Program-made: the position numbers and the translations under genes
Source of the DNA: a virus
Taxonomy: Duplodnaviria > Heunggongvirae > Uroviricota > Caudoviricetes
IMG/VR virus record: IMGVR_UViG_3300009502_000023
Coordinates: 37,731-101,730 of that record
Strand: one strand, 5' to 3'
Length of the DNA stretch: 64,000 bases
Notes under the pieces: generated by a model
Database searches by the model: none
The model's input: only the letters and a program-made list of their open reading frames with translations
Told to the model about the DNA's origin: nothing
In this document: piece after piece, positions 3,285-54,542 of the stretch
Numbering within the stretch: position 1 is the stretch's first letter
Layout: each line of letters starts with the position of its first letter

Positions 3285-3313
3285 ACTGTAAAACTGAAAC
3301 GTGAAGGAAAGTT

Positions 3314-4537: not shown

Positions 4538-4543
4538 ATATGT

Positions 4544-4588
4544 GGTTGGGTCTTCATTTTAATTAATGAAGACCCAACCTTCTTTTTA
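4544..4588 (+). terminator. rho-independent terminator
   Basis: 13-bp perfect stem GGTTGGGTCTTCA/TGAAGACCCAACC with loop TTTTAATTAA followed by TTCTTTTT. Confidence 0.55.
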
Positions 4589-4601
4589 AGGAGTCATAAA
4601 A

Positions 4602-21322: not shown

Positions 21323-24161
21323 TTTCTTTAACGTAGATGAGTTTTGTGAAACGATCCCAGAGATTACTACTAATAAAATCTATGCAAAGAGAGGTTTTCA
21401 TCCAAATGGTCTTTTCTCTGAAAAGTTCTTTGGACCGGTAAGGACTTGTACTTGTGGTTGTGGTATTTATTGGGGTCGGTCTAAGATTGGTGAACTCTGT
21501 AGTCAGTGTGGAGTTGAGATTGGGTATTCGAGTTTGAGAAGAAAGAAGTTTGCAAAGATTGCTCTTCCCTTCCCGGCTCTTAATCCAATTATGTACTATC
21601 TTATTCTAAAAGCTGGTAAAGCTACTATTGGAAATGTTATTCATGATATGATTTTCAATGATACTACGATGGGTTATTATTTCGATACTGATTCTAGAAA
21701 GTATATTCAGGTTAAGAAACCAAGCATTGAGAGTGAGACACCTATAATTCCAGAAGGAACAATTCTGTATTCTGGAGCTAATGGTATCTATGAACTAATT
21801 AAGTTTGAATCTGAAAGAATGATGGAAACAAATACGACGTGGAAGTTTATTAATACAAATATTAGTAAATTTTTTATGTCGAATGTTATTGTATGTCCTC
21901 CCGAGTTTAGACCAGTGTCGAAAACTAAAGACGTACAAATGCGTGATAAGATGAATGAGTTCTATATGACTATTCTGAATAATAGTTTGATGGTCAAGAA
22001 TGATGTGACCACTTATGAAAATTCAGAAATTCATATGACCAACTTTAGAAATCAACAGAGATATATCTTCAATTTCTATGAATATATTTTCTCAAAGTTT
22101 TCTAAGAAGTCTGGACTAATCAGAGGTTCTATTCTTGGTAAGAGAATTGACTTTTCAGCTCGTGCTGTAATTAGTCCTGAACCAAAATTACTTCTTGATG
22201 AATGTTCTCTTCCTTATATTATAGCATTAGAATTATTTAAGCTTCCTATTGTAAATCGATTGTTGGAGATGAAAAATTACGGAGATCGTAAATTCGTAAG
22301 ATATGATCCAACTATTGATTATGTTAATGATTGTATTAAGTTGAAAGACCTTGCTTTACTTGATATTGTCAGAGAAATAACAGCAGGAAAATTGGTATGC
22401 TTAAATCGTCAACCAACTTTGCATCGAATGGGTTTGTTGTCATTTAAGATTCTTATCAATACAGACCATGTAATTAAGATTCATCCGATGGCGTGCGAAC
22501 CATATAATGCAGACTTTGATGGCGATCAGATGGCTGCATATATTTCTCTATATCCTGAATCTGAAGCTGAAAATAAAGAGAAGATGTTTATCTTAGCTAA
22601 CTTAGTATCTCCATCTACAGGTAAGATGATTCTTGGTGCAAATCAAGATATTTTGCTTGGGTTGTACTTAATGACTAAACCAGATGAAACTAAGAAAGTT
22701 ACTTATAAAAATATCGAAACTTATGAGGGTCGAGTTAAGTTTAATAGTATCTTCCCTGATAATTTTCCGTTTTTGAATAGGACGATTAATAAGAAGGAAC
22801 TGCATGTTCTCTTGAATATTTTAGTTCAGGTTTATCCTCCTGAGACTGTTAAGAATATTCTTGATAATATGAAGAATATGGGATTCTATGAAACTACAAC
22901 TCGGGGTACCACATTCTCGTTGAAAAACTTGAGTGGTGAAGGTATCCATGATGTAATTTCTGGTATTGTGGATGATCCAACAAAGACACCACAAGAAAAA
23001 TTCCATCTTCTTGCTGATCATCCCCTAAAGAAACAAATTCAAGAAGATTTCCCCTACAAGGATTTTATTGAATCTGGATCACGTGGTTCCTGGGAACAGG
23101 CAAATCAATTGATCTTCTGTAGAGGTTATATGTCTAACTCAAAGGGCGAGATGGTGGAAACACCGATTAAGAATAATCTCGTTCATGGTTTGACAAAAGA
23201 TGAGTTCTTTACATCCTGTTATGGATCTCGCAAGGCATTACTTGATGTAGCTCTTAATACTGCAGTATCTGGATATTTGACTCGCAAATTAGTTTATTGT
23301 ACTATTAATCTTGAACTTGATGAAAAGAAAGATGATTGTGGTACAACCGATTACTTCGAAGTTAAGATTCCAGAATTAATGACTGATGATAAGTTCAACG
23401 AGTTGGTTGCTGGCATTCCTGATCTCATTGAACGAAAGATTATGAAAGATCATCTTAAACACAAGTATGAAGAGATGGACCCAATTAAACTTACCAGAAG
23501 TTTAATTCATCGTTATATGACTGTTACATCAGAAACTGGTGAAACTATATTGAAGTTGATTGATGAAGATAATTATCATACCTTGTTTGGTAAGACAGTT
23601 AAGCTTCGTTCACCAATCTTCTGTAAGTCAGCTAGAATTTGTAAGACATGTTATGGTAAGATGAGTGATAAGGTTCATTCAAAGTATGTTGGTGTGTTAG
23701 CAGCTCAAGCCCTTGGCGAAGTTGCAACTCAGCTTACTCTTCGGACTTTCCACACTGGTGGTGTTGCGAAGGTGAGCAAAGATAAAGATTCATCACACCA
23801 AGATATCATTAGTGACTTGACAGTAGTTAATAGATTGCTGCATGGATCGGCTAGTGGTTCCTACTCTGAATTGATCTTGAAATTGTTCTCGGTTTATTTG
23901 AGACATAAGGTATTACTGTTGATTAATTTTGAATTGGTAGTCAGCCAACTCATGCGCATAGGAAACATGAGATGGAGATTGCACCCAAATCGAGATACTG
24001 AAAATTATCAATTGGTTTCGGTTGAGAATGTACCTTCTAGGGAGAGTTTCCTTCTGGCATTAGCATTCTCGAAGCCGTATAATTATATCGTTAGTGGTAT
24101 TCTTGGTAATAGTCAAACGACCGATGGTATTCTCGAGAAGATGTTAATTAATCGAATTTAG
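21312..24161 (+). CDS. rpoC: RNA polymerase beta-prime-like subunit (compact, single polypeptide)
   Basis: N-term Zn ribbon CTCGCG...CSQCG; universal catalytic NADFDGDQMA at about 22507-22536. Confidence 0.85.
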   Translation: MKINFFNVDEFCETIPEITTNKIYAKRGFHPNGLFSEKFFGPVRTCTCGCGIYWGRSKIGELCSQCGVEIGYSSLRRKKFAKIALPFPALNPIMYYLILKAGKATIGNVIHDMIFNDTTMGYYFDTDSRKYIQVKKPSIESETPIIPEGTILYSGANGIYELIKFESERMMETNTTWKFINTNISKFFMSNVIVCPPEFRPVSKTKDVQMRDKMNEFYMTILNNSLMVKNDVTTYENSEIHMTNFRNQQRYIFNFYEYIFSKFSKKSGLIRGSILGKRIDFSARAVISPEPKLLLDECSLPYIIALELFKLPIVNRLLEMKNYGDRKFVRYDPTIDYVNDCIKLKDLALLDIVREITAGKLVCLNRQPTLHRMGLLSFKILINTDHVIKIHPMACEPYNADFDGDQMAAYISLYPESEAENKEKMFILANLVSPSTGKMILGANQDILLGLYLMTKPDETKKVTYKNIETYEGRVKFNSIFPDNFPFLNRTINKKELHVLLNILVQVYPPETVKNILDNMKNMGFYETTTRGTTFSLKNLSGEGIHDVISGIVDDPTKTPQEKFHLLADHPLKKQIQEDFPYKDFIESGSRGSWEQANQLIFCRGYMSNSKGEMVETPIKNNLVHGLTKDEFFTSCYGSRKALLDVALNTAVSGYLTRKLVYCTINLELDEKKDDCGTTDYFEVKIPELMTDDKFNELVAGIPDLIERKIMKDHLKHKYEEMDPIKLTRSLIHRYMTVTSETGETILKLIDEDNYHTLFGKTVKLRSPIFCKSARICKTCYGKMSDKVHSKYVGVLAAQALGEVATQLTLRTFHTGGVAKVSKDKDSSHQDIISDLTVVNRLLHGSASGSYSELILKLFSVYLRHKVLLLINFELVVSQLMRIGNMRWRLHPNRDTENYQLVSVENVPSRESFLLALAFSKPYNYIVSGILGNSQTTDGILEKMLINRI

Positions 24162-25177: not shown

Positions 25178-28100
25178 ATGCTTCGAGTTCCCGCATACGA
25201 GTTACAGAATATCAATGTGTATAATTTTAGAAACCATGAATGGAATGAAGAAACCATAATCGATAATATCAACAAGATGCTTGTTTGTGGTGAAGATTAT
25301 GGTTTGCGAATCAAGTCAGTAGTTATTAAAAATAAAGAAGAAAAAGAAACATCCGAAGTTAAAAGAACCAAGAGTAAGATTCTTGATATCTCTCTTGCAT
25401 ATACTAATGAAGAAGGAACCGAGGATGTTGATCTGAGTTATGATCTTCCTTGGTTGTTACAAAATCACTTTTTCATTAGTGGCAACTGGAAAGTTTGTGT
25501 ATACCAGTTGTTTGATAAGCCTGTTATTAAACGTCCAGGTATTATCAAAATTCGCACCAATATTCAATCGATCATGCTTGAAAAGAAAACAGGAACAAGA
25601 CGTAAATTTTCTTATGAGATTAGTCTTTTTGGAAAGAAGTTTGCTTTTGCTAAGCTTCTTATTGCTTATTTGGGAATTGAGCAAACTAAGGCTCGGTTTA
25701 CTCTGAATGAGAATAATGAGTATACCGGTCCTGTAATCAATGAGGATATTGATCTTTTGATCAAAGATATTACTGCAGTACTCAATGATGTTTCTCTTGA
25801 TAAGGCTAGACTTTTGGAAACATATTTTCCAAGAAAAGTGGATGCTAAAATTATTGAGGATGTTCTTTTGATTACTAAGATTGATATCTTTAGTAAGAAG
25901 TATTTTAATACCGATAATGTCATTGAAGAATTTCTCTTCACTATTCAAAATGATATTAGCGATGATTCCAATTATGCTAATAAGAGAATTCGATTTGTTG
26001 AGCAGGTTGTATACGTCCATCTTGCAAAGGATTTCTATAATCTAATTAACTCTATTCGAAAGAATAGAAAGTTGAAGTTCTCTGTTAACTCTAAATCTAT
26101 TTTGTCAAATGTCAATGTATCTAACATTGTACAGTTTGATAATAGTTTGAATCCACTTTCAGAACTAGCTATGTTGTCAAGAACATCATTGTCTGGTCCT
26201 GGTGGTTTTGAAAAAGCTAATGTCCCACAGTCATTGAGAGAGATTCATCCCTCCATGTTGTATTTGATTGATCCATCAGATACTGCAGATCGTGAAGGCT
26301 GTGGTACAATTCAATATCTTATTCCTAATACGGAATTCAATCAGGATGGTACATTCTTTTCTAGAGGTAAGAAGGTTATTAATTCTGTCTCTGAAAGTTT
26401 TGTTCCGTTCCTTGAGCATGATGACGCAACTCGGTTACAGATGTCTTCGAGTCAGCAGCGGCATGCAATTATGTTAAAGAAATTCGATAACGCACTAATC
26501 CAGAGTGGTGTTGAAGGAATGTATACTGATCAGACCTCTTTCTTATTTAAAGCAAAGAGAAATGGTAAAGTCATTTATCTTGATGATAATATCATTTGTG
26601 TTCAGTATGATAATAAAACCTGTGAAGCATTTCATATTGGATATCGAAAACTGTATATCTCTACAGTAGATTTCTATAAGGTTTATTACAACATTGGTGA
26701 TACCTTCTCTAAGAATGATATCATTGCAGAATCCAATTATCTTAGAAATGGTAATATTACACTTGGAAAAAATTGTTTGGTAGCTATCATGCCTTGGTAT
26801 GGTTATAATTATGAAGATGGTATTATTATCTCTCAGAAAGTTGCTGAAGAGGATTATTTTACCAGTGTTCATTATGTTGACCTGATTATTGAACTAGCAC
26901 CAAATAAAGTATTGATGAATCAGGGAACAGATTATACCAATTATAAACCACTTCCTGAAATCGGTCAAGTTCTTCATCGCGGTGACTCATATGCAAAAAT
27001 TAAAGCTATCGACACCGATGGTTTTGATGATGTGATGTTTGAACCAGTAACAGAAGAATGTGTGACCGAAGATTGTAAGATTGTGGATATTAAGATCTAT
27101 GCGAATAAATGGAATAAGAATTTTCCACAGTATGATCTGTTTATTCAGGAACTAATTAAAACACAGAAGTCAAAGAAGACCGATATTATCAAGAAATTAT
27201 CTAGTCATCTTACTAAAGAAGAACTGGATAAACTTACAGATACTCTCGAGATTCATCAGACCGAAAAGAATAATTATAAGATCAAGGGTGAGTATATTGA
27301 TGGTGTCAGAATTGAAATTACTGCTGTTTATGAAAGAAAAGTAACAGTCGGTGACAAGTTAGGAAATCGGCATGGGAATAAGGGTGTGATTTCTAAGATT
27401 GCACCTATTGAAGAAATGCCAGTATTACCTGATGGTCGTAAAGCTGATATTATCATTAATCCTCTTGGTATTATTTCTCGTATGAATATTGGTCAGGTCT
27501 ATGAGGCACATCTTGGTATGGCACTTATGGATTTGAAGAAGATAGTTCGAGAGATGCATAATGAGAAGAAAACTCAAAAAGAAATTTACGAATATATCTT
27601 GGGATTCATTAAGATAATCGATATGACAGAGAACGGTAATTATTATCAACAGATGAAGACGATCTTTGATAGTTTACCGATTCAGAGTTTTATTGATAGT
27701 CTTGATAATTTCTTTGTTATTCAGCCACCATTTGAATCTATTCAATGGGTTCAATTAAATAAAGCAATGGAATATACTAAGACCGCATTTGAGATTACTG
27801 TGTTTGATCCAATCTCTGGAGCGAACATTCAGAATCCAATCAATTGTGGTTATATGTATTTCATGAAACTTAACCATATTGCTCAGGATAAAATGTCATA
27901 TCGTGGCATTGGACCCTATTCAGCTAAGACATCTCAACCCCTAGGTGGTAAATCTAGAAAAGGTGGACAGCGTCTTGGTGAAATGGAAATTTGGGCAGTG
28001 ATTGGTCATGGTGCTGAAAAGAATCTTAATGAATTCATTTCTGTTAAATCAGATTCAATCAAACTCAGAAATAAATACATTTCAGAATGTATGTGTAACA

Positions 28101-28465
28101 GTGATCTATTACTAGATTCTGATGATGATGAGGTTCCGCAGTCACTAAGATTGCTTCAGACAAATCTAAAATCAATTGGTTTGGATTATGCTTTGTTTGA
28201 GGGCGAGAATAAATTCTTACCTGAACTAGATGAGGATGATGGAGATGAAACAGAAAAAGCAATTGAAAATCTTAAACAGGTTTTATCTTCTGAGAATGCT
28301 CGTGAAGACATTCCTGTTATAGAAGGTATTGGTGATGGAACTACAACAATTGAAATTGGAACAGCTGTAGATGAGAAGAAAATCATTTATGATGATACTT
28401 TGGTAGATCAGTTTCCAATGGATGAAGAATTACTGGAAGGAATTTCTAACGATGACAACGAATAA
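25178..28465 (+). CDS. rpoB: RNA polymerase beta-like subunit (compact, single polypeptide)
   Basis: RHGNKGVISKI and GGQRLGEMEIWAVIGHGA beta-subunit signature motifs. Confidence 0.85.
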   Translation: MLRVPAYELQNINVYNFRNHEWNEETIIDNINKMLVCGEDYGLRIKSVVIKNKEEKETSEVKRTKSKILDISLAYTNEEGTEDVDLSYDLPWLLQNHFFISGNWKVCVYQLFDKPVIKRPGIIKIRTNIQSIMLEKKTGTRRKFSYEISLFGKKFAFAKLLIAYLGIEQTKARFTLNENNEYTGPVINEDIDLLIKDITAVLNDVSLDKARLLETYFPRKVDAKIIEDVLLITKIDIFSKKYFNTDNVIEEFLFTIQNDISDDSNYANKRIRFVEQVVYVHLAKDFYNLINSIRKNRKLKFSVNSKSILSNVNVSNIVQFDNSLNPLSELAMLSRTSLSGPGGFEKANVPQSLREIHPSMLYLIDPSDTADREGCGTIQYLIPNTEFNQDGTFFSRGKKVINSVSESFVPFLEHDDATRLQMSSSQQRHAIMLKKFDNALIQSGVEGMYTDQTSFLFKAKRNGKVIYLDDNIICVQYDNKTCEAFHIGYRKLYISTVDFYKVYYNIGDTFSKNDIIAESNYLRNGNITLGKNCLVAIMPWYGYNYEDGIIISQKVAEEDYFTSVHYVDLIIELAPNKVLMNQGTDYTNYKPLPEIGQVLHRGDSYAKIKAIDTDGFDDVMFEPVTEECVTEDCKIVDIKIYANKWNKNFPQYDLFIQELIKTQKSKKTDIIKKLSSHLTKEELDKLTDTLEIHQTEKNNYKIKGEYIDGVRIEITAVYERKVTVGDKLGNRHGNKGVISKIAPIEEMPVLPDGRKADIIINPLGIISRMNIGQVYEAHLGMALMDLKKIVREMHNEKKTQKEIYEYILGFIKIIDMTENGNYYQQMKTIFDSLPIQSFIDSLDNFFVIQPPFESIQWVQLNKAMEYTKTAFEITVFDPISGANIQNPINCGYMYFMKLNHIAQDKMSYRGIGPYSAKTSQPLGGKSRKGGQRLGEMEIWAVIGHGAEKNLNEFISVKSDSIKLRNKYISECMCNSDLLLDSDDDEVPQSLRLLQTNLKSIGLDYALFEGENKFLPELDEDDGDETEKAIENLKQVLSSENAREDIPVIEGIGDGTTTIEIGTAVDEKKIIYDDTLVDQFPMDEELLEGISNDDNE

Positions 28466-33148: not shown

Positions 33149-34225
33149 ATGATCGAGTGCAAAGAATGTGGAAAAGAATGTATTTCTGAATTTCATTTAG
33201 CTAAACATTTAGCAAGATATCCAATTAATCATTGTACTCCACAAGAGTATTATGATAAGTATATATTAAAAGATGATAATAATAAAAAGTGTCACCGTCG
33301 AACTTGTTTAAATCAGACATCTTTTAATGGTATTATTCATGGATATAATAAATACTGTTCACCTAGTTGTTGTAATAAAGAAAAAGCAACAGATCCTGAA
33401 TATAGATTGAAAAATAAAAATGCTCAGATTATAGCACAGAATAAACCAGAAGTAAAACAGAGAAGTAGAGATACAGCAAGTGCACAGTGGAAAGATCCCG
33501 ATGTAAGAAGACGAACATTATCTACGTATCAGCAAACTTTAAACAAACCAGGTATAAGAGAAAGATATTCAGAGGCATCAAAAAATAGATGGACTAATTC
33601 TGAATATAGAAATAAATATATACAATCAATGCAGAAACATTGGAAAAGTGAAGATTATAAAAAAGAATTTAAAAAAGCACATAACACAGAAGAAAGTAAA
33701 TTAAATCATTCGGTTGCAAGTAAGAAACTGTGGCAGAATCAACTATTTAGAGATAGGATGATTTCTTTTCTAAATAGTTCAGATCATAAAAAGTATATGA
33801 GTGATTTAGTTACTGTTAAAATGTTAAATGGAGAATGGAATCCTGGACATGGTTGCTATCATTGGGGGTACTGCTATTCTGAAAAGAATAACTCATTCAT
33901 GTTTCATAGATCAGGTACAGAACTCACTGCTTTTCAATTGTTGGATATAAACCCTTTAGTAAAATCATTCGATTATGAACCTTTAAGAATTAGTTATATT
34001 GATAAAGATGGAAATACAAAGTTTTGTATTCCTGATTTGATGATACATTATATAGATAATAGTTTGGAGTTGGTTGAAATAAAACCTGATGTTTTTGTCA
34101 ATGATGAAGACATTCAATTAAAACTTAAAGCTATGTCGGAGTATTGTATCAAAATTGGTATTAAATTTAGAGTGTGGTTAGAAAGTGAAATAGTAAACAG
34201 AAACACGAAACAGGAGATAGTTATC
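33149..34225 (+). CDS. homing-endonuclease-like protein (CKECGKEC Zn-ribbon, basic repeats, PD-(D/E)xK-like PDL...ELVEIKP) lacking its own stop codon
   Basis: ORF reads through in frame into the GC-rich gene starting 34226; AGAATAAATTAAAAGG motif and AAAGGAG RBS upstream. Confidence 0.5.
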
Positions 34226-34468
34226 ATGGCTACATATCAAGAGACGATGGATGCAATCAACACCAAGATCGATGCTTTCAAGGCCGCTGCTGCCACTGGC
34301 GTGGACAACAAGACTGCTGCCCTCCAAGCTCGCAAGTTGTCGATGGAACTTCGCGCTGATCTTCAGGGTTTCCGTAAGGCTAGTGTTGATAATGATCGCG
34401 CTAATACCAAGCACCGCGAGCCCAAGGCTGCAACAGCAACTGTTGCCGAACCTGCCGTTGTTGCCTAA
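34226..34468 (+). CDS. small (80 aa) Ala/Lys-rich GC-rich gene, probably very highly expressed
   Basis: own AGGAG RBS 9 nt upstream of ATG 34226; abrupt shift to GC-rich codon usage relative to upstream endonuclease body. Confidence 0.5.
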   Translation: MATYQETMDAINTKIDAFKAAAATGVDNKTAALQARKLSMELRADLQGFRKASVDNDRANTKHREPKAATATVAEPAVVA

Positions 34469-34960: not shown

Positions 34961-36007
34961 ATGAATAAGTTATGCGAATGTGGTTGTGGTATTGAAGTAA
35001 CCAATGAGAATAATAGGTTTTTAAAGGGACATAGTAGAAAAGGAAATAAAGAATCTTATATAAAACAAGCAAAAAATTACAAAGAAAAATATGGTGTTGA
35101 AAATCCATTTCAATTAGAACTAGTTAAAGATCAGATTAAACAAAAACATTTAGAAAATTTAGGTGTTGAAAATCCCAGTTATTCAAAAGAGATTAAAGAA
35201 AAGAAAACTAAAACAAGTTTAATAAGATATGGCTGTATGCACCCAATGCAATTTGAAAAATTTAAAGAGAAATCAAAGCAAACATGTAAAGAAAAGTTGG
35301 GTGTTGATTTTGCATTTCAATCAGAATCAGTCAAAGAAAAAATCAAACAAACCAGTTTTACAAAATTTGGTACTGATCATCCGATGAAATCAAAAGAAAT
35401 TCAAGATAAGAAAATTAAAACATTGATTGAAAATTTGGGATTTTCGAACCCAATGAAATCAGAAATATGCAAAAATAAAGCAAGAAAAACAAATATAGAA
35501 AAATTTGGCGTTTCGAATCCTAGTCAGTCTAAAATAGTTAAAGAACAGAAAAAACAAACATCAATAAAACATTGGGGTTTTGATAATTGGTCAAGAACAC
35601 CACAGGGAAGAAAACTACATCGAATTAATTCTATTAGAATGAGAGATGACCAATTAGCTAATGATGAACCAGCAATGCCGTGCGTTGGTATTGAAGAACG
35701 ACCATTTTTAAATACTCTTCAGCAATATACAAAATTTAATATCATTCGAAATGATAATTCTTTCAATCATGATGTTGGCAGATATCCAGATGGTCATATT
35801 CCCGAGTTAAAACTTTTCATTCAATTTGATGAAAAATTTCATTTTGAAAATAAAGAAATGACTATCTATAAAGAAGATGATCTAAATTGTACACTTGAAC
35901 TAGCATCTTTGGGATATATTGTTTTCAGAATTTCAGAAAAACAATGGAGAGAAAATAAAGAACACGTAATAGATCAATTTGAACTTATCATAACAGAACA
36001 CGAATGA
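34961..36007 (+). CDS. homing-endonuclease-like protein (Zn-ribbon + repeats + PD-(D/E)xK-like YPDGHIPELK) upstream of ligase
   Basis: MNKLCECGCGIEV; repeated K.Q.HLENLGVENP modules; C-term near-identical to 13482/24220 paralogs. Confidence 0.6.
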   Translation: MNKLCECGCGIEVTNENNRFLKGHSRKGNKESYIKQAKNYKEKYGVENPFQLELVKDQIKQKHLENLGVENPSYSKEIKEKKTKTSLIRYGCMHPMQFEKFKEKSKQTCKEKLGVDFAFQSESVKEKIKQTSFTKFGTDHPMKSKEIQDKKIKTLIENLGFSNPMKSEICKNKARKTNIEKFGVSNPSQSKIVKEQKKQTSIKHWGFDNWSRTPQGRKLHRINSIRMRDDQLANDEPAMPCVGIEERPFLNTLQQYTKFNIIRNDNSFNHDVGRYPDGHIPELKLFIQFDEKFHFENKEMTIYKEDDLNCTLELASLGYIVFRISEKQWRENKEHVIDQFELIITEHE

Positions 36008-36020
36008 AGGAATTTGAACA

Positions 36021-37892
36021 GTGAACAGAATACAGGATCTGAAAAAACAAATCGAATATCATTCAGATTTATATTATAACAAATCACAGCCGGAAATCAC
36101 TGATTTTGAATTTGATAATCTTGTAAGTGAATTAAACTCGATGGGTGGTTCGGTTGAAGTTGGTGCTCCAACATATGGTAAAAAGGTTACTCATAGCAGC
36201 AAGATGGGATCATTAGATAAAGATACTTCTTGTGATGTGATCATAGCTTGGGCTAACAAATATACTAATGGTAAAGTTGTTGTTGAACCGAAAATTGATG
36301 GTCTTGCTATTGAACTTACTTATATCAATGGAAATTTAAAACAAGCAGCAACCCGCGGAGATGGTAATGTTGGTCAAGATGTTACTGATAATGTTAGAAT
36401 GATTAGTTCAATTCCTAAAACATTATCTAATAAATTAACCGTCAAGGTTCGTGGTGAAATTCTGATGCTTCGATCTGTATTTAATGAATTTCTGAAATTG
36501 GGTGTTGAGGATTTATCAAATCCAAGAAATGCAGCATCTGGTTCATTGATGGTTAAAGATCCAGCAATTACCGGATCGAGGAACTTAAATTTCATTTGTT
36601 ATGATACTGTATCAAGCGAATCTTTTACAACCGAAGCAGATAAGCTTCAATGGATTCATACTAATCTTCCTGAGATCCAATTGATAGAATGGCATCTTGA
36701 AGATATTTCCAATTTTAAAACTATTTCTGAGAAGTGGGAAATCAACCGGTCTGTACTTAATTATGATATTGATGGTCTTGTAATTTCATTAAATAGTATT
36801 TCTGATCAAGAAGAAGCTGGTTGGACTGAGAAATGCCCAAGAGGAAAAATGGCATTTAAATTTAAACCAGAACAAAAGAATGCAAAAATATTATCTATTG
36901 ATTGGCAAGTTGGTCGGACTGGTCGTTTGACTCCTGTAGTTTATATTGAACCAACTGTAATTGGTGGTTCTATAAATTCTAAGGCGACACTACACAATGC
37001 AAAAATGTTTAATGATAAAAATATAGCTGTAAATGATACTGCTTTGATTGAAAGAGCTGGGGATGTCATTCCTCAGTTAATTAGAGTTGTTGAAAGAAAT
37101 TCTGATAGAGTGGTTCAGTCACTACCAACTATATGTCCTTCTTGCAAACATCCGGTGGTGTGGGATAAACGCGGAGTTAATATTTGGTGTTTGAATGCTG
37201 ACTGTCCTACTCGGTTTATAGAGTTGGTCATTCATTATATCAAAACACTTGATATTCTTGGTGTTGGGGAAGGAATTATTACTGCATTGTGTGATGCTGG
37301 GTATGTTAAAAAATTATCTGATCTATATGATGTTACATTAGAACAGATAAAGAGCGTAACCGGTGGTGATAAATCTTCAGAAAAAGTCTATAATGCAATT
37401 CATTCGAAGAAAGAAATACCGCTAGAAATTTTTCTTGATTCTTTGGGAATCAGTGGTTTAGGAACTTCTACTTCGAAAGATATAGCTAAAAAATTTAAAA
37501 CTTTACAATCAGTAAGAAATATCGGAAAGAGTCAATTACTCTCAATGGAAGGTATACAGGCTTTAACCGAGGCAAAAATTATTGATGGATTAGCAAATCG
37601 CTCGTATATTATAGATGAATTACTAAAGAGAATCAGTGTTATGAGTACAAAAGAATCAACTGGTTCGTTGGCTGGTAAATCGTTTTGTTTAACCGGATCA
37701 ATGTCAAAATCCAGAAAAGAAATAGAAAAAACGATCATGTCCAAAGGCGGAGAAGCAGAATCTGGAGTTAAAGCAGGATTAACTTATTTGGTTCAATCCG
37801 ACCCAACTAGTACCTCATCTAAGAGCGAGAAAGCACTGAAATTGGGTGTGGTGATAATTTCAGAAGATGATCTTTGGAGAATGATGGAGTGA
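36021..37892 (+). CDS. ligA: NAD-dependent DNA ligase
   Basis: adenylation motif EPKIDGLAIEL (KxDG), OB/Zn (CPSCKHPV...C..DC), HhH and C-terminal BRCT-like region. Confidence 0.85.
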   Translation: MNRIQDLKKQIEYHSDLYYNKSQPEITDFEFDNLVSELNSMGGSVEVGAPTYGKKVTHSSKMGSLDKDTSCDVIIAWANKYTNGKVVVEPKIDGLAIELTYINGNLKQAATRGDGNVGQDVTDNVRMISSIPKTLSNKLTVKVRGEILMLRSVFNEFLKLGVEDLSNPRNAASGSLMVKDPAITGSRNLNFICYDTVSSESFTTEADKLQWIHTNLPEIQLIEWHLEDISNFKTISEKWEINRSVLNYDIDGLVISLNSISDQEEAGWTEKCPRGKMAFKFKPEQKNAKILSIDWQVGRTGRLTPVVYIEPTVIGGSINSKATLHNAKMFNDKNIAVNDTALIERAGDVIPQLIRVVERNSDRVVQSLPTICPSCKHPVVWDKRGVNIWCLNADCPTRFIELVIHYIKTLDILGVGEGIITALCDAGYVKKLSDLYDVTLEQIKSVTGGDKSSEKVYNAIHSKKEIPLEIFLDSLGISGLGTSTSKDIAKKFKTLQSVRNIGKSQLLSMEGIQALTEAKIIDGLANRSYIIDELLKRISVMSTKESTGSLAGKSFCLTGSMSKSRKEIEKTIMSKGGEAESGVKAGLTYLVQSDPTSTSSKSEKALKLGVVIISEDDLWRMME

Positions 37893-38395
37893 AAAGAATG
37901 AACGACGACGAAGATGATATCCTTATTGAGATTAATGATGAGGATTATTACATTAAATCATTTAGGTTGGTTCCTGGCGGAATATCTCCTGAAGATAAGA
38001 AACTCATTATGAACAGTATGCTTCATGGTGATAGAGTATTCTTTGGTGGATTAAACGAAGGATCCCCAACCCCATTTAATGTAATAATTTTTAGCAGATA
38101 TGCTGGTGATAGTTATGTTGAAGAATATCTGGATTCTGAATTGGGTTATGATCCAGTTATGATTATCAGCATGCTTAAATGTGAAGATATTAATTCTCAG
38201 ACTTTTCTAAATCGTTTTGCTAATGTTCCTGGTACTCGTCTTGAAGGTGTTGCTAGGAAGACAGCATTGGATCGGTTAGAAAAATACTTCACAGAAAAGC
38301 CACAAGAGAAAACCGCAACTGAATTGATGAATGTTTTTAATCAAATGTCAACTGAGAAACTGGCGGAGTATTGTTACGCCCACGGACTAGCATGA
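37874..38395 (+). CDS. hypothetical acidic protein
   Basis: ORF 173 aa, ATGA-coupled to next gene. Confidence 0.45.
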   Translation: MENDGVKRMNDDEDDILIEINDEDYYIKSFRLVPGGISPEDKKLIMNSMLHGDRVFFGGLNEGSPTPFNVIIFSRYAGDSYVEEYLDSELGYDPVMIISMLKCEDINSQTFLNRFANVPGTRLEGVARKTALDRLEKYFTEKPQEKTATELMNVFNQMSTEKLAEYCYAHGLA

Positions 38396-39198
38396 AAACA
38401 AGAAATGGATTAGTTAGTAATAGTAGTTCGTCTTCTTTTGTTGTGGCGTTTCCTAAGAAACCCAAAACACCAGCAGACGTCTGGAATACTATGTTCTTTG
38501 GTAAAGATGGTGGTATATCTGTATACGAGCGTGATGGACTTTCGTATAGTCAAGTATCTACAGATGTATTCAATAGTCTTAAAGATAAACTTTTTAAGAG
38601 AGCTACTTTAAAAGATATCGTTGAGGAGTTTGAAAATCGTTATCATTATTATATCAATTCTTCAACCATTATGTTCGACGGACAAGAAACTGATAAACAC
38701 GGTGGTTGCTGGTCAGAAAAGATTGATAAGTATTGTGGTAGTGATCCTAAGTTACTAGAGGAACTACGTCAGGAAATTCTTAAGTCTGAGCAACTCTGTT
38801 GTGATCTTCGTGATGAGGAAACACAAATTCTAAAACGAGGACCCAAAGAAGTTCCTTACGCTTGGGGAGGTCATATAAATTACAGTACCAAGAAACCATA
38901 CACCAAGGAACAGATTAAAAGATATAAGAAGTATAGTGATGATGTCCATGAATTCAAACGATCTGATGAAGAGTATATTGCGTATGAGAAAAAGAGGAAC
39001 GAACACTGGCATGATGAAAAGAAAGATAAACTAAAGAAGAAATTAGCTACCGTTGATGCTAAAGCCTTTATGAGAGATAATGAAGGTAAGTTTATCTTCA
39101 TAGTTAGTTATAGTGATAATGACGGTGGTGATGGCAGTACAATGGAGCACGGAAACGTTTTCAAAAATGTTCCGCATATTCGTATCAGTCATCATTGA
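38392..39198 (+). CDS. leader-family protein 5 (MKTRNGLVSNSSSSSF leader; 250-aa charged body)
   Basis: ATG 38392 gives the conserved leader; ORF track start 38371 is an upstream in-frame extension. Confidence 0.65.
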   Translation: MKTRNGLVSNSSSSSFVVAFPKKPKTPADVWNTMFFGKDGGISVYERDGLSYSQVSTDVFNSLKDKLFKRATLKDIVEEFENRYHYYINSSTIMFDGQETDKHGGCWSEKIDKYCGSDPKLLEELRQEILKSEQLCCDLRDEETQILKRGPKEVPYAWGGHINYSTKKPYTKEQIKRYKKYSDDVHEFKRSDEEYIAYEKKRNEHWHDEKKDKLKKKLATVDAKAFMRDNEGKFIFIVSYSDNDGGDGSTMEHGNVFKNVPHIRISHH

Positions 39199-39206
39199 GT
39201 GGTTGT

Positions 39207-39238
39207 GGTGGGTGTAGATTTGATCGTCTACACCCACC
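39207..39238 (+). terminator. stem-loop (12-bp stem) after leader-family gene 5
   Basis: GGTGGGTGTAGA/TCTACACCCACC; no T-run, so weak terminator call. Confidence 0.35.
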
Positions 39239-39250
39239 AATGGAATAACT

Positions 39251-39616
39251 ATGAAAATAAGAGAAGAAATAAATGATCGTTCTAGTGATGAAGATAAACC
39301 AATTTTACTTTGGTTATTTGAACGATATCATATGGAAAGTCAATGGAGATTTGTTGCTCGGTGTACGCATATTCCTTATGGAACATACTCATATGAATCG
39401 CATAGGATGTGGAGTCCAACCCAAGAAGGAAAAAAATTATACTTCTACGGACAAATGTTAGAAGCATTTGAAAAGACCCAAGATGATTTTTCTGTTCTTG
39501 TAACCGCTAATAAACTTAAAGGTACCAGAACAAATTCAGGAATATGGGAAGATCAACTTGATTGTCGAATAGATAGTAATACAATGTTACTCAAAAAAAT
39601 AAAAGGAGAAAAATGA
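39251..39616 (+). CDS. hypothetical protein
   Basis: ORF 121 aa, ATGA-coupled to next gene. Confidence 0.45.
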   Translation: MKIREEINDRSSDEDKPILLWLFERYHMESQWRFVARCTHIPYGTYSYESHRMWSPTQEGKKLYFYGQMLEAFEKTQDDFSVLVTANKLKGTRTNSGIWEDQLDCRIDSNTMLLKKIKGEK

Positions 39617-39981
39617 AAACAAGGAATGGATTGGTTAGTAATTCTAGTTCAAGTTCTTTTCTTATCTACGGTGCAGAAATTACCGATGATATGAAAGAGA
39701 AGATCAAGAAACTTCTTACACCAAAAGAAAATGCTGAAGATGATGATAGTGATAGTCACTATGAATTATCAAAAGCATTTGAGTATGGCACAACAAAGTT
39801 CGGTGTAGACTACATTGTTGGTTGTGGTGGGGATAGTGCATATCTCGGTCTTAGTTGGGGTTCTGTTGACGATGATGAGACAGGAAAACAATTTAAAGAT
39901 AAGATTGAAAAAGCAATTGAATCTATTATCGGTGAGAAGATTAAGTGTTCAACTCATGATGAAGCATGGAATGATTGTTAA
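39613..39981 (+). CDS. leader-family protein 6 (MKTRNGLVSNSSSSSF leader)
   Basis: ORF 122 aa. Confidence 0.65.
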   Translation: MKTRNGLVSNSSSSSFLIYGAEITDDMKEKIKKLLTPKENAEDDDSDSHYELSKAFEYGTTKFGVDYIVGCGGDSAYLGLSWGSVDDDETGKQFKDKIEKAIESIIGEKIKCSTHDEAWNDC

Positions 39982-39995
39982 CAAAGGAAAAGAAA

Positions 39996-40223
39996 ATGAA
40001 GTGTGTCAAGCATGGTGATAAGGTTAGTCGTCTTTCTGAAGAGATGGCTTCCAAACGAGTCGATCAAGGTTGGAAGTATTGTTCTAAGTCTGATTTCAAG
40101 AAAGCAACTAATAAAGAGATAATTGAAAAACCTGTTGCGGTTAAAATCGAAGGACCAAAGAAGCAGAAGAAACAACGTCCTCAGAAGGATGATGCTATTG
40201 ATGCTGCAATTAATCGGAAGTAG
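39996..40223 (+). CDS. hypothetical small basic protein (start probably ATG 39996, MKCVKHG)
   Basis: ORF with GGAAAAGAAA RBS-like upstream. Confidence 0.4.
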   Translation: MKCVKHGDKVSRLSEEMASKRVDQGWKYCSKSDFKKATNKEIIEKPVAVKIEGPKKQKKQRPQKDDAIDAAINRK

Positions 40224-40276
40224 TCAAAGTTTAAGTTAATAGTAATCAGTTATTGGAAACAAACAAAGAGGTACAA

Positions 40277-41863
40277 ATGTTTACGTTTATCATCGGAATC
40301 ATTTTCATTCTCGCTGGGCTTATTGTCTCGGTTGTTGCTAGTGATCTGGATCGTATTATTCGAACTATTATCCTGGTCCTTACAGTTATCGTTGGTCTTA
40401 CATGCGTTGTCGGTTCTTCGACTTTGTATGTTAAGCCAAGCGAGGGTGGTATCATTGTTAAGAAATTCGGGTCGTCGTTGAAGGAAGGTCATATTATTGC
40501 AGTAAATGGTGAGCGAGGTGTTCAGGCTGAGGTTCTATCTCCTGGATGGAGCTTTGGTTGGTGGCCGTGGCTCTACGACTGCGAGAGTCTTCCTAACATG
40601 AATATCCCAGAAGGTAAAGTTGGTGTGGTTGTGGCAAATGATGGACAGCCACTTCCTGTCAATGAAATCTATGCGGATGCGTGGGAATCTCCAAACAAGA
40701 TGGTTGATGCTATGGAATTCTTAACCAAGGGTGGTAAGAAGGGTCCTCAGCTTACCGTACTTCCTCCTGGACAGTATCGGTTCAATCCAAAGTTGTTTGA
40801 TATTTCTATTGCTCCATGTGTAGATATTACTATTGGTGAAGTTGGTGTCGTTCGAGCAAATGCAGGTAATGTATATAAAAATACAAATACTGTATCTATC
40901 AGCGGTGTTCAACTTGTACCAAAGGGATATAAGGGCATCTGGAATGAAGCATTGCTTCCTGGGAAGTATTACCTTCACCCGAACGCGTATCAAGTAGTTC
41001 ATAAGGCTACCATTAAGAAGATGTATAGCTATACTGGTTCGGAAGGTACTGAGTCTCATTCAAAGGCTGATCGTCCTCACATTGATGCTTCGATTCAAAC
41101 TCGTTCTGTTGATGGATTTAATATTCCTGTTGACGTTCGTGTGTTGACAAGTGTTCGTGCGGAGAATGCACCTTGGGTTGTTGCTAAGTTCGGCAATCCA
41201 GATGCTATGTCTGCAGATGGTTATGAAACGATTGAAACTCTTTCAATTCTTCCTACCATCCGGACAATTCTTCGTAATGCAGCTCAGAATGAGGGTGCAA
41301 TGCAATTTGTCCAAAAGCGTTCAGAAGTTGAGAAAGCTGCATATATGCAGTTTACATCTGAAATGCTAAAGGATAAGATTGATGTCGAGGGTGTTTATCT
41401 TGCTGATATTCGGTTAGATTCAACACCTGAAGGCAAGGCACTCTTGAAGACTCAAACCGATAAGCAAATTGCTGATCAGCAAAAGGCAATGTATCAACAA
41501 CAGGTACTCGCAGAGAATGAAAGAGCCAAGCAGGTTACTGCAGCTAGTGCAGCTGACCAGCAAAAGCGTATTCAGGAATCTCTTGCTGGTATCGAGTTTG
41601 AGAAAAATGGTGCTGAAGCTGCCAGGAATAAAGCTATCGGCGAGGCATCTGCATATAAGGCGAAGGTTGAAGCTCTCGGTGGTGTAGAGAACTTTACCAA
41701 GCTTGAGATTACAAAGATGATGGTTGAAGCTATGAGTAAGACATGGAAGGGTGAAGTACCCAACATTGTCATTCTGGGTGGTGGAAATGGTTCTGGTCTG
41801 AATGATGTCATGACGGGAGTATTTTCACAGCAGATGCAGGCTCAAGCTACGCAGAAGAAGTAG
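40277..41863 (+). CDS. SPFH/band-7 (flotillin/YqiK-like) membrane protein, GC-rich codon usage
   Basis: N-terminal TM helix, SPFH-like core, C-terminal Ala/Glu/Gln-rich coiled-coil flotillin-type repeats; codon usage like 8994/29181 genes. Confidence 0.55.
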   Translation: MFTFIIGIIFILAGLIVSVVASDLDRIIRTIILVLTVIVGLTCVVGSSTLYVKPSEGGIIVKKFGSSLKEGHIIAVNGERGVQAEVLSPGWSFGWWPWLYDCESLPNMNIPEGKVGVVVANDGQPLPVNEIYADAWESPNKMVDAMEFLTKGGKKGPQLTVLPPGQYRFNPKLFDISIAPCVDITIGEVGVVRANAGNVYKNTNTVSISGVQLVPKGYKGIWNEALLPGKYYLHPNAYQVVHKATIKKMYSYTGSEGTESHSKADRPHIDASIQTRSVDGFNIPVDVRVLTSVRAENAPWVVAKFGNPDAMSADGYETIETLSILPTIRTILRNAAQNEGAMQFVQKRSEVEKAAYMQFTSEMLKDKIDVEGVYLADIRLDSTPEGKALLKTQTDKQIADQQKAMYQQQVLAENERAKQVTAASAADQQKRIQESLAGIEFEKNGAEAARNKAIGEASAYKAKVEALGGVENFTKLEITKMMVEAMSKTWKGEVPNIVILGGGNGSGLNDVMTGVFSQQMQAQATQKK

Positions 41864-44858: not shown

Positions 44859-46709
44859 ATGTGTGGTATTGTTGGATTCTATGCACGAGAAAGTGCAATT
44901 GATTATAAACATCTTGATACTCTATTCATGGGTGCTGAGAAACGCGGTCAGGATGGTTTTGGTTATGTCTTGATTAGAAAAGAAAATGGTAAACGAGTAT
45001 TCAAAGTTTCTTTTAAGAGTGCTGAACCATATTCTAAAATTAAAGATGCAGTCAAGAAAGATCTACAATGTTGTGGAATTCAGATTGGTGATTTGCTTAT
45101 CGCAATTGCTCGAGCTGCACCCGAGACAGAAGGTGAAACAAATGCTGATGATTTAGCAGAAACTATGCAACCGATTATTAATCATACCCATGGTTTATAT
45201 ATCGTACATAATGGTGCTGTGAGTAATAAGATCCACAGAGAATTACAGTTGAATTCTTCATTTACCGGATACAATTTTAAAACAAAGATTGATTCTGAAG
45301 CTATTGCTGCTGCTTATGTTTTGAAACAAAGAAATATGAAAGATGCTATGGAGTATCTTTCTGGTGGATTTGCTGCAATAGTGTATGATCAATTTAAGGA
45401 TATGGTTTATGTCATTAATGATTTTAAACCAATCGCCCACGGTTATGTTAAAGGTGTTGGTTTCTTTCTGCATAGTGATAATGATGTTCTGGGTGAAGTA
45501 ATCAAAAGTATTACATCCTGCGAAAGGGATGGAATATGTATGTGGGAAAACTTTTATCATCACTATTTAAGCGGTGGAAGAATTAAAGAGATTGATCTTG
45601 ATTCTGGTTTCATGAGAAACATCAAGTATTCTCCAAGATTCATTACTCCGAAATGGGATAGTAATCGAGGAATTAAAGTTCAACCAGAAAATAAAAGTAT
45701 CAAAGCTGAAATTTGTGCTATAGAAGATGCAAAAATTTACACGTGCATAACGGGTGGTGATGATAGTCTTTGTTTAGTTGCCGCTAGTGGTGGACTTGAT
45801 AGTTCAATGACATTGGCAACTTTAAAAATGGCTGGTTACAATAACATCATAGCTTGTCATTTCAATTATGGTCATCGAGGTAGTAAAGCAGAGTACATGG
45901 CGATTCAAGCTATCTGTATTGAGTTAGGTATTCCTCTACAGTACTTTGATTTATCTGGTAACTATAGAGCTATGGGTACCACATCAATGCTTACTGATAG
46001 TAATGCAAAAATTACTACTGGGACAGCTGATGGGTTAAAGCAACTAGAAGCTTGGGTTAACTTGAGAAATACTCAATTCTTAACTTGGATGGCAACGTAT
46101 GCTGAGTCTTTAGTAATGAAATTTAACTATAAGAAGGTTTACTTCCTTGGGGGTTTCTTAAATCTTTCTGAGTCTGGTCATTACCCAGATAATTCAGAAT
46201 ACTTTTTACAAACCTTCTTAGACCATCTTAAATATGGTTCTTTAATCGGACAAAGGATTATCCCTTTATATTGTCTAAGTAACATTATGAAGCACGAATT
46301 GTTTGTCATGATTAAAGCGTTTGGTTTGGAAAATGTATATCGTCATACAATCAGTTGTGATCGTCCGATGATTGAAACACCATCTTGTGATCATACTAGA
46401 ATAAATCATATTCCAAAGAATTCATTCGATGGAGTAGCTTGTAATTGTATGAAGGATGGAATGCCCGCTTGTGGAAGTGGACTGCTTAGTTACTGGGGTG
46501 CTAAGATGGTTGGTATGGATGATATGAAACTTCGTAATTTCTGTGAAGTAGATGATCCAGACTATCATGCTTATATTCCAGAACACATTAAATCAAAGTT
46601 TAATAAAACACCAGATATTAATACAATTATCAACAGGATTATTTTACCTGAAGATAAACTAAACAACTTAAGGAAACGTTTGAATGAAAACAAGAAACTC
46701 ATTAGTTAG
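44859..46709 (+). CDS. queC: glutamine amidotransferase (class II, Ntn Cys2) fused to QueC-like 7-cyano-7-deazaguanine synthase (Gat-QueC)
   Basis: MCGIVGF N-terminal nucleophile; PP-loop SGGLDS; FNYGHRG (QueC FDYGQRH); C-terminal Cys cluster. Confidence 0.75.
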   Translation: MCGIVGFYARESAIDYKHLDTLFMGAEKRGQDGFGYVLIRKENGKRVFKVSFKSAEPYSKIKDAVKKDLQCCGIQIGDLLIAIARAAPETEGETNADDLAETMQPIINHTHGLYIVHNGAVSNKIHRELQLNSSFTGYNFKTKIDSEAIAAAYVLKQRNMKDAMEYLSGGFAAIVYDQFKDMVYVINDFKPIAHGYVKGVGFFLHSDNDVLGEVIKSITSCERDGICMWENFYHHYLSGGRIKEIDLDSGFMRNIKYSPRFITPKWDSNRGIKVQPENKSIKAEICAIEDAKIYTCITGGDDSLCLVAASGGLDSSMTLATLKMAGYNNIIACHFNYGHRGSKAEYMAIQAICIELGIPLQYFDLSGNYRAMGTTSMLTDSNAKITTGTADGLKQLEAWVNLRNTQFLTWMATYAESLVMKFNYKKVYFLGGFLNLSESGHYPDNSEYFLQTFLDHLKYGSLIGQRIIPLYCLSNIMKHELFVMIKAFGLENVYRHTISCDRPMIETPSCDHTRINHIPKNSFDGVACNCMKDGMPACGSGLLSYWGAKMVGMDDMKLRNFCEVDDPDYHAYIPEHIKSKFNKTPDINTIINRIILPEDKLNNLRKRLNENKKLIS

Positions 46710-53533: not shown

Positions 53534-54542
53534 ATATAGTATGTGTAAATGTGGTTGTGGTAGAGAAGTAACTAATGAGAAGAATAAGTTTTTAAACGGG
53601 CATTGTTGGCGAGGAAAAAAATTATCAAAAGAACACAAAGAACAAATTTCTAAAACACATAATTTAGAAGAAGTTAAAGAAAAAACCAAACAAACATGTT
53701 TGAATAAATTTGGCGAGATTACTAATCTGGTATGTAGAGAAACTAAAGATAAAATTAAACAAACATGTTTAGAAAAATATGGAGTTGAAAGTTCAAATCA
53801 ATCAGAAGAAATTAAAGAAAAAAAGAAACACGCATGTTTAGAAAAATACGGTGTAGAATACCCATTGCAATCTAAAGAAATTCATGATAAATTTAAATAC
53901 ACAATGATAGAAAAATATGGAGTTGAATATACTTTACAATCAGAAGAATTAAAAGAAAAAATTAAACAAACATGTTTAGATGTTTATGGGGCTGAAGATC
54001 CAAACCAGTTAGAAGAAATCAAAGAAAAAATTAAACAAACATGTTTAAAACATTTTGGTGTCGAATGTCATTTACAATCAGAAAAAATAAAAGATCAAAT
54101 TAAACAAACATGTTTAGAAAAATATGGTGTTGATAACTATTCTAAAACATTTGAATTTAGAAAATTTGCAAGAGAACAAATGATTTCTTTTGTTGAATCC
54201 GGATTAAAAGATGGACAAGTTTTTTCACCAACAAAAGGTCGAAATGAAAAAGATTTTATATCAAAACTTCAATATGACGTATCTTATTTTATAGATAATG
54301 ATGCAAGAATTATTGGATATTTTCCAGATGGTTACATAAAAGAACTTAAGTTAGTTATTGAATTTGATGAACCGTGGCATAATAGAACATGGTCAAAGAA
54401 ACATGATATTCAGAAAGATGAAGATTATCAAAAAATAGGATTAAGAATATTTCGAGTTTCTGAACGAAACTGGATTGATAATAAAGAAAAAGTTATATCA
54501 GATTTTAAAATATTCATAAAGGAGATTTCAGAAAATGGCTAA
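53526..54542 (+). CDS. homing-endonuclease-like protein (Zn-ribbon + KQTCLEKYGVE repeats + FPDGYIKELK nuclease motif) abutting terminase gene
   Basis: MTKYSMCKCGCGREV; six K.KQTCL.KYGVE.P.QS repeats; overlaps terL start by 8 nt. Confidence 0.6.
   Translation: MTKYSMCKCGCGREVTNEKNKFLNGHCWRGKKLSKEHKEQISKTHNLEEVKEKTKQTCLNKFGEITNLVCRETKDKIKQTCLEKYGVESSNQSEEIKEKKKHACLEKYGVEYPLQSKEIHDKFKYTMIEKYGVEYTLQSEELKEKIKQTCLDVYGAEDPNQLEEIKEKIKQTCLKHFGVECHLQSEKIKDQIKQTCLEKYGVDNYSKTFEFRKFAREQMISFVESGLKDGQVFSPTKGRNEKDFISKLQYDVSYFIDNDARIIGYFPDGYIKELKLVIEFDEPWHNRTWSKKHDIQKDEDYQKIGLRIFRVSERNWIDNKEKVISDFKIFIKEISENG

Follow-up and report, generated by a model that had tools for sequence, protein, structure and literature searches.

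We analysed a 64,000-nucleotide stretch of a Caudoviricetes virus genome (IMG/VR record IMGVR_UViG_3300009502_000023, positions 37,731 to 101,730), referred to as the window throughout, around two protein-coding genes, here called genes 5 and 6, which together form locus 2. The order of the genes is a ligase gene, an unrelated gene, gene 5, another gene and gene 6, so that genes 5 and 6 lie 415 bp apart with a single open reading frame (ORF; 39251-39616) between them. Both encoded proteins begin with the same 16-residue segment, which we call the tag. A six-frame scan of the window for MKTRNGLVSNSSSSSF, with up to 7 of the 16 residues allowed to be substituted, matched exactly seven sites, all of them on the plus strand and at the start of an ORF (Table 1), the seventh copy being the one at 46684. 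Seven occurrences of a 10-residue invariant core, each at residue 1 of an ORF, are far beyond chance. The scan confirms the proposal of an earlier note on this DNA that a leader family exists and that two of its members, our genes 5 and 6, are separated by one gene. The most informative feature of the window is a radical-SAM gene that the earlier note had not linked to the family; together with four of the tag genes it is located 32 kb upstream of the locus 2 region.

Conservation of the tag and diversity of the bodies

Across 151 family members taken from more than 40 related loci, the tag has the consensus M-K-x-R-x-G-[F/L]-V-S-N-S-S-S-S-S-F and always begins at residue 1. M1, K2, R4, N10, S11 and S12 are conserved in all of these proteins (151/151) and S9, S15 and F16 in about 99%. 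A hydrophobic strand follows the tag immediately in every member, and the bodies fall into 64 BLAST clusters. The ORFs have a median length of 126 aa and a maximum of 269 aa; the shortest, of at least 19 aa, are truncated. Such truncated ORFs, with a stop codon soon after the tag, lie directly beside the radical-SAM gene in two related loci (position 5811 in L018 and 12269 in L012), which suggests that members of the arrays are still decaying and being turned over.

The tag is kept by selection at the protein level, since the seven 48-nt leaders of the window are only 58-85% identical in nucleotide sequence and both AGY and TCN codons are used at each of the serine positions 9 and 11-15. The leaders of genes 5 and 6, for example, agree at 41 of 48 nucleotides with a longest exact run of 11 nt. 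For the same reasons the window copies are not recent nucleotide duplicates or conversions. The window also has its own version of the tag: position 7 is leucine in all seven copies (TTA in five, TTG in two) and phenylalanine in 94% of the family, and G6 is replaced by serine in 5/7 copies and in 7% of the family. More generally, tags of one genome resemble each other. At the variable positions 3, 5, 6 and 7 the similarity is 0.64 within genomes versus 0.53 between genomes, a value that none of 300 label permutations reached, while codon identity at identical tag residues is barely higher within (0.46) than between genomes (0.40). This likeness fits a co-adaptation of all tags of a genome to one shared partner; alternatively, it could go back to old gene conversion followed by synonymous drift.

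Behind the tag, the bodies form separate families. Gene 5 has 85 metagenomic homologs, and every full-length one combines the tag with a C-terminal EHG...SHH motif. The body of this family follows the pattern FVVAFPKKP...SYSDNDG...MEHG.IF...PH.RISHH, with D242, E252, H253 and H268 invariant. Gene 6 has 20 homologs, all of them tagged, that share the motif YIGxSW..V.DDETGKQFK...KCSTHxEAW. When the two profiles were compared with hhalign, only positions 1-18 aligned (probability 98.6), and after removal of the tag no signal was left (E 0.3). Pairwise BLASTP among the bodies of the window gave nothing convincing either. The earlier note had named nucleotide-identical leader copies and mutually homologous bodies as the two findings that would speak against it; neither was found: the leaders are not recent copies, and the bodies show no detectable homology.

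The tag family is very large and undescribed. A profile built from the tag and parts of the gene 5 and gene 6 bodies was searched against 1.84 billion clusters, whose representatives are defined at 50% identity, and retrieved 16,158 clusters at E <= 0.001 and 2,260 at E <= 1e-10; a tag-only profile run against a set of 5.8 billion proteins retrieved short fragments only. With more than 16,000 clusters at 50% identity, the family is yet absent from Pfam, NCBIfam and PDB. Searches of Pfam, PHROGs and NCBIfam with the seven window proteins, both neighbouring ORFs of locus 2 and ten representatives of other subfamilies gave a single match, that of gene 5 to phrog_7397 (1.3e-16; the strongest part of the alignment covers positions 52-170 of the 170-position profile), and sequence searches of PDB with three profiles gave none. 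The function of phrog_7397 is not annotated; its first 23 positions match the tag of another paralog, and gene 6 does not match it. This entry covers the gene-5-type body only and neither the tag superfamily nor its link to an enzyme. A match to DUF3885 in one homolog was single and judged incidental. Full-text literature searches for the motif string and for links between phage radical-SAM enzymes and tags returned nothing relevant.

The AlphaFold2 model of gene 5 is confident (predicted local distance difference test, pLDDT, 93.5) with the exception of residues 1-10, which score below 50. It predicts a strand at residues 13-20, a long helical insert and C-terminal strands at residues 234-241 and 262-266. 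The model of gene 6 is weaker (pLDDT 68, residues 1-16 below 50) and has the order beta-alpha-alpha-beta-beta-alpha-beta. Low confidence at the very N-terminus next to bodies predicted to be folded would fit an exposed handle.

Table 1. Tag-family genes, the radical-SAM gene and features of locus 2, in window coordinates
Feature	Position	Strand	Remarks
Radical-SAM enzyme with SPASM/twitch-like C-terminal domain, 407 aa	3314..4537	+	Weak Pfam Radical_SAM and SPASM matches; predicted partner of the tag family
Tag-family gene 1, 159 aa	4892..5371	+	Array member nearest the radical-SAM gene
Tag-family gene 2, 119 aa	5368..5727	+	Overlaps gene 1 by ATGA
Tag-family gene 3, 188 aa	5724..6290	+	TTG start; overlaps gene 2 by TTGA
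Tag-family gene 4, 209 aa	6274..6903	+	From the tag scan
NAD-dependent DNA ligase	36021..37892	+	Synteny anchor for the comparison with L057
Conserved hypothetical gene 5' of gene 5	37898..38395	+	Likely start ATG 37898 (longest ORF from TTG 37874); TGA stop inside the ATGA of gene 5
Tag-family gene 5, 268 aa	38392..39198	+	N-terminus MKTRNGLVSNSSSSSF, then FVVAFPKKP; C-terminus ...DGGDGSTMEHGNVFKNVPHIRISHH
Tag-coding segment of gene 5, 16 codons	38392..38439	+	Stop of the upstream gene within its ATGA
Strong RNA hairpin in the 52-nt gap after gene 5	39199..39252	+	-27.9 kcal/mol, z -4.2
Conserved hypothetical gene between the tag genes, 121 aa	39251..39616	+	TGA stop inside the ATGA of gene 6
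Shine-Dalgarno-like AAGGAG	39603..39608	+	4 nt before the ATG of gene 6; read from the sequence
Tag-family gene 6, 122 aa	39613..39981	+	MKTRNGLVSNSSSSSF, then LIYG; conserved YxGxSW...DDETGKQFK...KCSTHxEAW
Tag-family gene 7, 106 aa	46684..47004	+	Overlaps the end of the glutamine amidotransferase-QueC-like gene by 26 nt

Linkage of the tag genes to a radical-SAM enzyme

The enzyme encoded upstream of the four-gene array has the CX3CX2C motif of radical-SAM proteins (C111, C115, C118) and a cysteine-rich C-terminal auxiliary domain, as expected for the radical-SAM/SPASM-twitch class. Its matches to the Pfam models Radical_SAM and SPASM are both weak, the latter with 18-22 bits around the cut-off, and the NCBIfam matches to PqqE, MftC, a tungsten (W)-cofactor maturase and WgkB are also weak and all far below the cut-offs. 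Of 39 orthologs, 38-39 retain C302, C333, C351 and C399; these four C-terminal cysteines would be enough for one auxiliary cluster. Judged by the radical-SAM core, the C-terminal cysteines and the weak similarity to maturases, the enzyme appears to be of the protein or peptide maturase type. One ORF of 96 aa separates its gene from the tag array (4892-6903). Small ORFs adjoining the enzyme gene are not conserved and match no family.

The linkage seen in the window recurs in other uncultivated viruses. An IMG/VR search with an alignment of two enzymes, those of the window and of locus L001, yielded 44 loci, 38 of them non-redundant, with orthologs of 35-60% identity. Tag genes are present in 35 of these 38 loci, with 1-11 copies each; the nearest one is less than 500 bp from the enzyme gene in 28 loci and less than 2.5 kb away in 34. 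Almost without exception (155 of 156), the tag genes lie on the same strand as the enzyme gene. When all ORFs of at least 70 aa in the enzyme loci were clustered, no gene family other than the enzyme and the tag subfamilies occurred in more than 5 of about 40 loci. The reverse search, starting from tag proteins, found the enzyme within 10 kb in four of five loci (L001, L057, L059 and L060). In L001, a 522-kb NCBI contig, a homolog of gene 5 belongs to a run of three tag genes that is preceded by a 60%-identical ortholog of the enzyme.

Upstream of the radical-SAM gene, the window also encodes two calcineurin-like metallophosphoesterases (332-1024 and 2589-3284), and a homolog is similarly placed in L002. 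A Metallophos gene is found in only 4 of about 40 loci and is probably not a partner in the module.

A scan of GTDB added nine loci from bins labelled as Asgard archaea, Thermoplasmata, Planctomycetes, Treponema and others, with 25-60% GC; tag genes adjoin the enzyme gene in six of them. Among the archaeal labels, L053, on the 793-kb contig JAHPZA010000009.1 of a metagenome-assembled genome (MAG) labelled Promethearchaeota (Asgard), carries a radical-SAM ortholog (10001-11485) and a convergent tag gene (MKFRYGFVSNSSSMSF...). The five tag genes of L052, labelled Heimdallarchaeota, show the lineage-specific variant MKFRLGF(V/I)SNSSS..(Y/F). The module may thus occur in archaeal viruses, proviruses or cells.

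In isolated phages, enzyme orthologs were found in 172 of 50,697 records, nearly all of them from enterobacterial T4-type phages. The enzyme-bearing isolates are the KP15 group (Slopekvirus), RB43 (Pseudotevenvirus) and related phages of Klebsiella, Enterobacter, Cronobacter and Citrobacter, together with Vibrio phage D479, where five tag genes lie no more than 11 kb from the enzyme gene. RB43 (RB43ORF121c and ORF116c) and KP15 (KP15_102 and KP15_97) have two tag genes each, on the strand of the enzyme gene. One protein of each pair is of the gene-5 type and ends in ...LEHGQIFRNLEHTMKSHH; these distant members came from a later motif scan, after blastn with locus 2 and tblastn with gene 5 against the same phage records had given no match. 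Of the two tag proteins of KP15, one is present in 175 phage records and the other in 174, and their distribution over genera is essentially that of the enzyme. Their genes are located among putative middle promoters and genes of early/middle type.

Possible functions of the tag

We tentatively propose a two-part system in which one radical-SAM enzyme modifies the 16-residue tag on dozens of structurally unrelated proteins per lineage. Its carriers would be T4-type phages, other large phages and uncultivated viruses, some of them in contigs binned as archaeal. We rate this proposal as a whole at slightly less than an even chance. For its central step, recognition or modification of the tag by the enzyme, the balance of arguments is about even, and the chemistry and biological role suggested below should be taken with the same reserve. 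Each family protein would consist of the invariant N-terminal tag, a short hydrophobic strand and a subfamily-specific body, and the tag would serve as the common handle by which a dedicated enzyme recognises all of them. SPASM enzymes are known to oxidise serine or cysteine to formylglycine, to epimerise residues and to form C-C, C-O or C-S cross-links in peptides and proteins. In the present case, the modification would probably fall within the invariant N-S-S and serine run and could start with hydrogen abstraction from a serine or a neighbouring residue. The tagged proteins may be early or middle effectors of host takeover or counter-defence.

The proposed logic resembles that of RiPPs (peptides made by ribosomes and then modified post-translationally), applied here to folded proteins of 80-270 residues. 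In RiPP systems, one maturase can act on many precursors with a shared leader, as ProcM does on the prochlorosins, and radical-SAM/SPASM enzymes mature sactipeptides, SCIFF peptides, PQQ and mycofactocin. As in these systems, a radical-SAM enzyme with an auxiliary-cluster domain adjoins a tandem array of genes with a shared N-terminal segment and a variable downstream part, several paralogs exist per genome with some of them away from the enzyme, and maturase and putative precursor genes are adjacent in 35 of 38 viral loci. Unlike in RiPP systems, the conserved segment is only 16 residues long and the variable part is a folded protein of 80-250 residues belonging to an orthologous subfamily instead of a short core peptide; the putative precursors are not short (see the median length above and the confident model of gene 5). 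No RiPP recognition element (RRE), leader protease or exporter was detected, and the carriers are phages. A further difference is the invariant serine run, which suggests that the tag itself is the site of the chemistry.

A precedent for a protein substrate is provided by anSME and AtsB, anaerobic sulfatase-maturating radical-SAM/SPASM enzymes that act on full-length sulfatases and oxidise a serine or cysteine in a short linear motif near the N-terminus. The proposed system would likewise combine a radical-SAM/SPASM enzyme with full-length proteins and a short N-terminal linear motif. It differs in that the enzyme has four conserved C-terminal cysteines and not the full SPASM set, with no significant similarity to anSME models, and in that the putative substrates are many unrelated small proteins and not one enzyme family.

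Several known motifs do not account for the tag. The formylglycine motif of sulfatases, (C/S)-x-(P/A)-x-R, is absent from it. In the glycyl-radical domain (R-V-x-G-[FWY]) the glycine is invariant, and the R-x-G-F of the tag is spaced differently and tolerates serine in place of G6. A Sec, Tat or lipoprotein signal peptide would require a hydrophobic h-region of at least 10 residues after the basic n-region; in the tag, K2 and R4 are followed by a polar Asn/Ser run, and only 2-4 hydrophobic residues come after F16.

A number of observations weigh against modification of the tag by the enzyme. The link between the two is one of guilt by association, and adjacency is not obligatory: three of the window copies lie 34-43 kb from the enzyme gene, the tag genes of RB43 and KP15 about 20 kb from it. 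The enzyme occurs without a tag gene in the fetched flank at L009 and at three MAG loci, and at L061 tag genes are present but the enzyme is not within reach. The isolates with both partners are close relatives, so that they represent one lineage and their co-occurrence is not independent evidence. As to the enzyme, it resembles characterised maturases only at scores far below the family cut-offs, which does not fix a substrate class. Pfam did not detect a PqqD-like RRE in it, although such a sequence search may miss a cryptic one, and neither a leader protease nor an exporter recurs in the enzyme loci. Finally, residues 13-20 of gene 5 are modelled as a core strand, which would make the conserved segment partly structural and not a free leader.

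The last point leads to the alternative that the tag belongs intrinsically, as a structural or catalytic element, to a single superfamily that has diverged very far. In one version, a propeptide (residues 1-10), the serine-rich loop, the first core strand and the C-terminal histidine and glutamate residues would together form a ligand-binding or active site, and the radical-SAM enzyme would act in the same pathway, for example by making the ligand, without modifying the tag. The confident strand at residues 13-20 of the gene 5 model indeed lies beside the C-terminal strands, and in the gene 5 family N10-S14 and F16 are invariant along with D242, E252, H253 and H268, which resembles an enzyme site. 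In several other subfamilies, too, the C-terminus is a strand with His, Glu or Gly and an aromatic residue behind it (STHDEAW, SMSHHD, TIAHGG, IIHSEEGY), and the hydrophobic strand directly after the tag is common to all members. Yet the comparison of the gene 5 and gene 6 profiles finds nothing once the tag is removed, the invariant C-terminal residues vary among subfamilies, and the tag is far more conserved than any body residue over the 64 clusters, which would be unusual for an active-site motif whose surrounding fold can otherwise vary freely. We consider this alternative unlikely.

Somewhat less probable still is a role of the tag in targeting or assembly, as a signal that some other factor reads, with the enzyme merely co-regulated. 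Candidates include a capsid targeting sequence (CTS) like that of T4, a degradation or localisation signal and a strand-forming motif for co-assembly. The T4 internal proteins IPI-III carry the short conserved CTS peptide on hypervariable bodies and are encoded in plastic genome regions. The architecture of the tag family is alike, with a short conserved N-terminus (starting MKT) on unrelated small proteins in plastic regions of T4-type genomes. The flexibility predicted for the tag in the models of genes 5 and 6 and the greater likeness of tags within a genome would also agree with a signal. A CTS proper can be set aside, as the consensus of the 151 members has no Glu at positions 1-16 and hence lacks the L/I-x-E prohead-protease site that defines it. 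In addition, the genes do not stand in a late context, neither in KP15 with its early/middle-type genes nor in the window with its ligase and helicase genes, and they are linked to the radical-SAM gene and not to genes of head morphogenesis. A signal of this kind also leaves unexplained that the radical-SAM gene is the sole conserved neighbour across very different phages.

Should the enzyme act on the tag, it would define a new class of radical-SAM substrates, folded proteins with a universal N-terminal handle. Phages would then alter the chemistry of an entire group of small proteins that they themselves encode, in a counterpart of RiPP maturation at the protein level by which a complete effector repertoire is given the same chemical feature. 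Both partners are present in the E. coli phage RB43 and in Klebsiella phages of the KP15 group, which are tractable, as well as in D479, and the question is directly testable in these phages. The invariant tag also offers a simple annotation handle for thousands of phage genes now called hypothetical.

Origin of locus 2 and other genes of the window

The tag genes of the window are dispersed over three loci, a pattern that the earlier note had taken as a sign of leader-mediated recombination or of cassettes acquired repeatedly. Relatives keep all their tag genes together in a single array next to the radical-SAM gene. In L057, whose enzyme is 57% and whose gene 5 ortholog is 54% identical to that of the window, one contiguous block begins with the NAD-dependent ligase and a 70-aa ORF and continues with the radical-SAM gene, then the gene 5 ortholog and a further six tag genes, so that seven tag genes altogether accompany the ligase and the enzyme. 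A gene-5-type member is also part of the array beside the enzyme gene in L002. Because the relatives hold the tag genes contiguous with the enzyme, the three loci of the window are best read as an old array that was split. In the simplest reading, locus 2 looks like a piece of an ancestral enzyme-adjacent array that was broken up by rearrangement and insertions.

The present arrangement of locus 2 is found again in L062, where gene 5 is 65% identical. There, a homolog of ORF 37898-38395 (45% identity) is followed by gene 5, one extra gene, a homolog of ORF 39251-39616 (64%), gene 6 (62%) and a homolog of ORF 39975-40223 (76%). The two genes upstream of genes 5 and 6 are therefore real, with homologs in the same order and with the same 4-nt overlaps. 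Judged by this synteny, locus 2 in its present form is vertically and stably inherited.

Against this background, it is improbable that the three loci arose by repeated acquisition or by shuffling of leaders onto unrelated bodies: the unrelated bodies, the dispersed loci, the within-genome likeness of tags, which old gene conversion could also produce, and the common 5' ATGAAAACAAG-type start of every copy with exact shared runs of 7-19 nt would agree with it, but the leaders have diverged in nucleotide sequence with switches between serine codon families, the body subfamilies already carry the same tag in many other and distant phages, the same subfamilies stand contiguously beside the radical-SAM gene in relatives, and locus 2 is syntenic in L062. 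Recent leader-mediated recombination is thus unsupported by the nucleotide data, while ancient events are possible. Of the earlier interpretation as a whole, the family, the non-recent copies and the bodies without detectable homology hold, and the cassette or recombination origin finds no support in the form given, nor does the translational argument considered next.

Genes 5 and 6 each begin inside the stop codon of the preceding gene, as had been noted before, and at both sites the ATGA contains the TGA. Each of the seven copies in the window overlaps the ORF before it (by 1, 4, 4, 17, 4, 4 and 26 nt). This overlap says little specific about locus 2, because Met-Lys (ATG AAR) is invariant in the family and every member thus starts with ATGA, or with GTGA or TTGA. 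The ATGA start is a property of the first two codons of the family and not an independent feature. Whether the genes ride on upstream translation, as the earlier note had it, can therefore not be judged from the forced tetranucleotide, and gene 6 has its own AAGGAG.

The hairpin behind gene 5 has a perfect GC-rich stem of 12-14 bp without a T-run, and none of 200 shuffled sequences folded as well. A terminator scan did not score it as a terminator, and it may be an RNA-stability or processing element instead. Over positions 35900-40400, a scan for promoters and terminators found no excess over the shuffled expectation. The ORF that follows the hairpin, between the two tag genes, has no Pfam or PHROG match.

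Other genes of the window and of its relatives deserve mention. Just upstream of the ligase, a 348-aa ORF (34961-36007) contains about seven tandem repeats of some 30 residues with the pattern K..G(V/F).NP(M/F/S)(Q/K)S..(I/V)K.K, and a 439-aa ORF (33149-34468) has a TnsA-like endonuclease domain at its N-terminus (Pfam 2.5e-9) and could possibly be a mobile or homing element. L057 also encodes a 962-aa protein (2475-5363) with a weak match to a Cas12f/TnpB-type domain, just downstream of a DEAD/Cas3-like helicase (1-2371). A gene at 44859-46709, which overlaps tag gene 7 by 26 nt at its 3' end, encodes a 616-aa fusion of a glutamine amidotransferase and a QueC-like PP-loop protein, the domains of which suggest a modification pathway of the 7-deazaguanine type. 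In the window, two large ORFs with Rpb1 and Rpb2 domains (21312-24161 and 25178-28465) resemble the beta' and beta subunits of multisubunit RNA polymerase, which phages do not usually encode at near full length, and the same genome encodes a T4-type large terminase (54535-56307).

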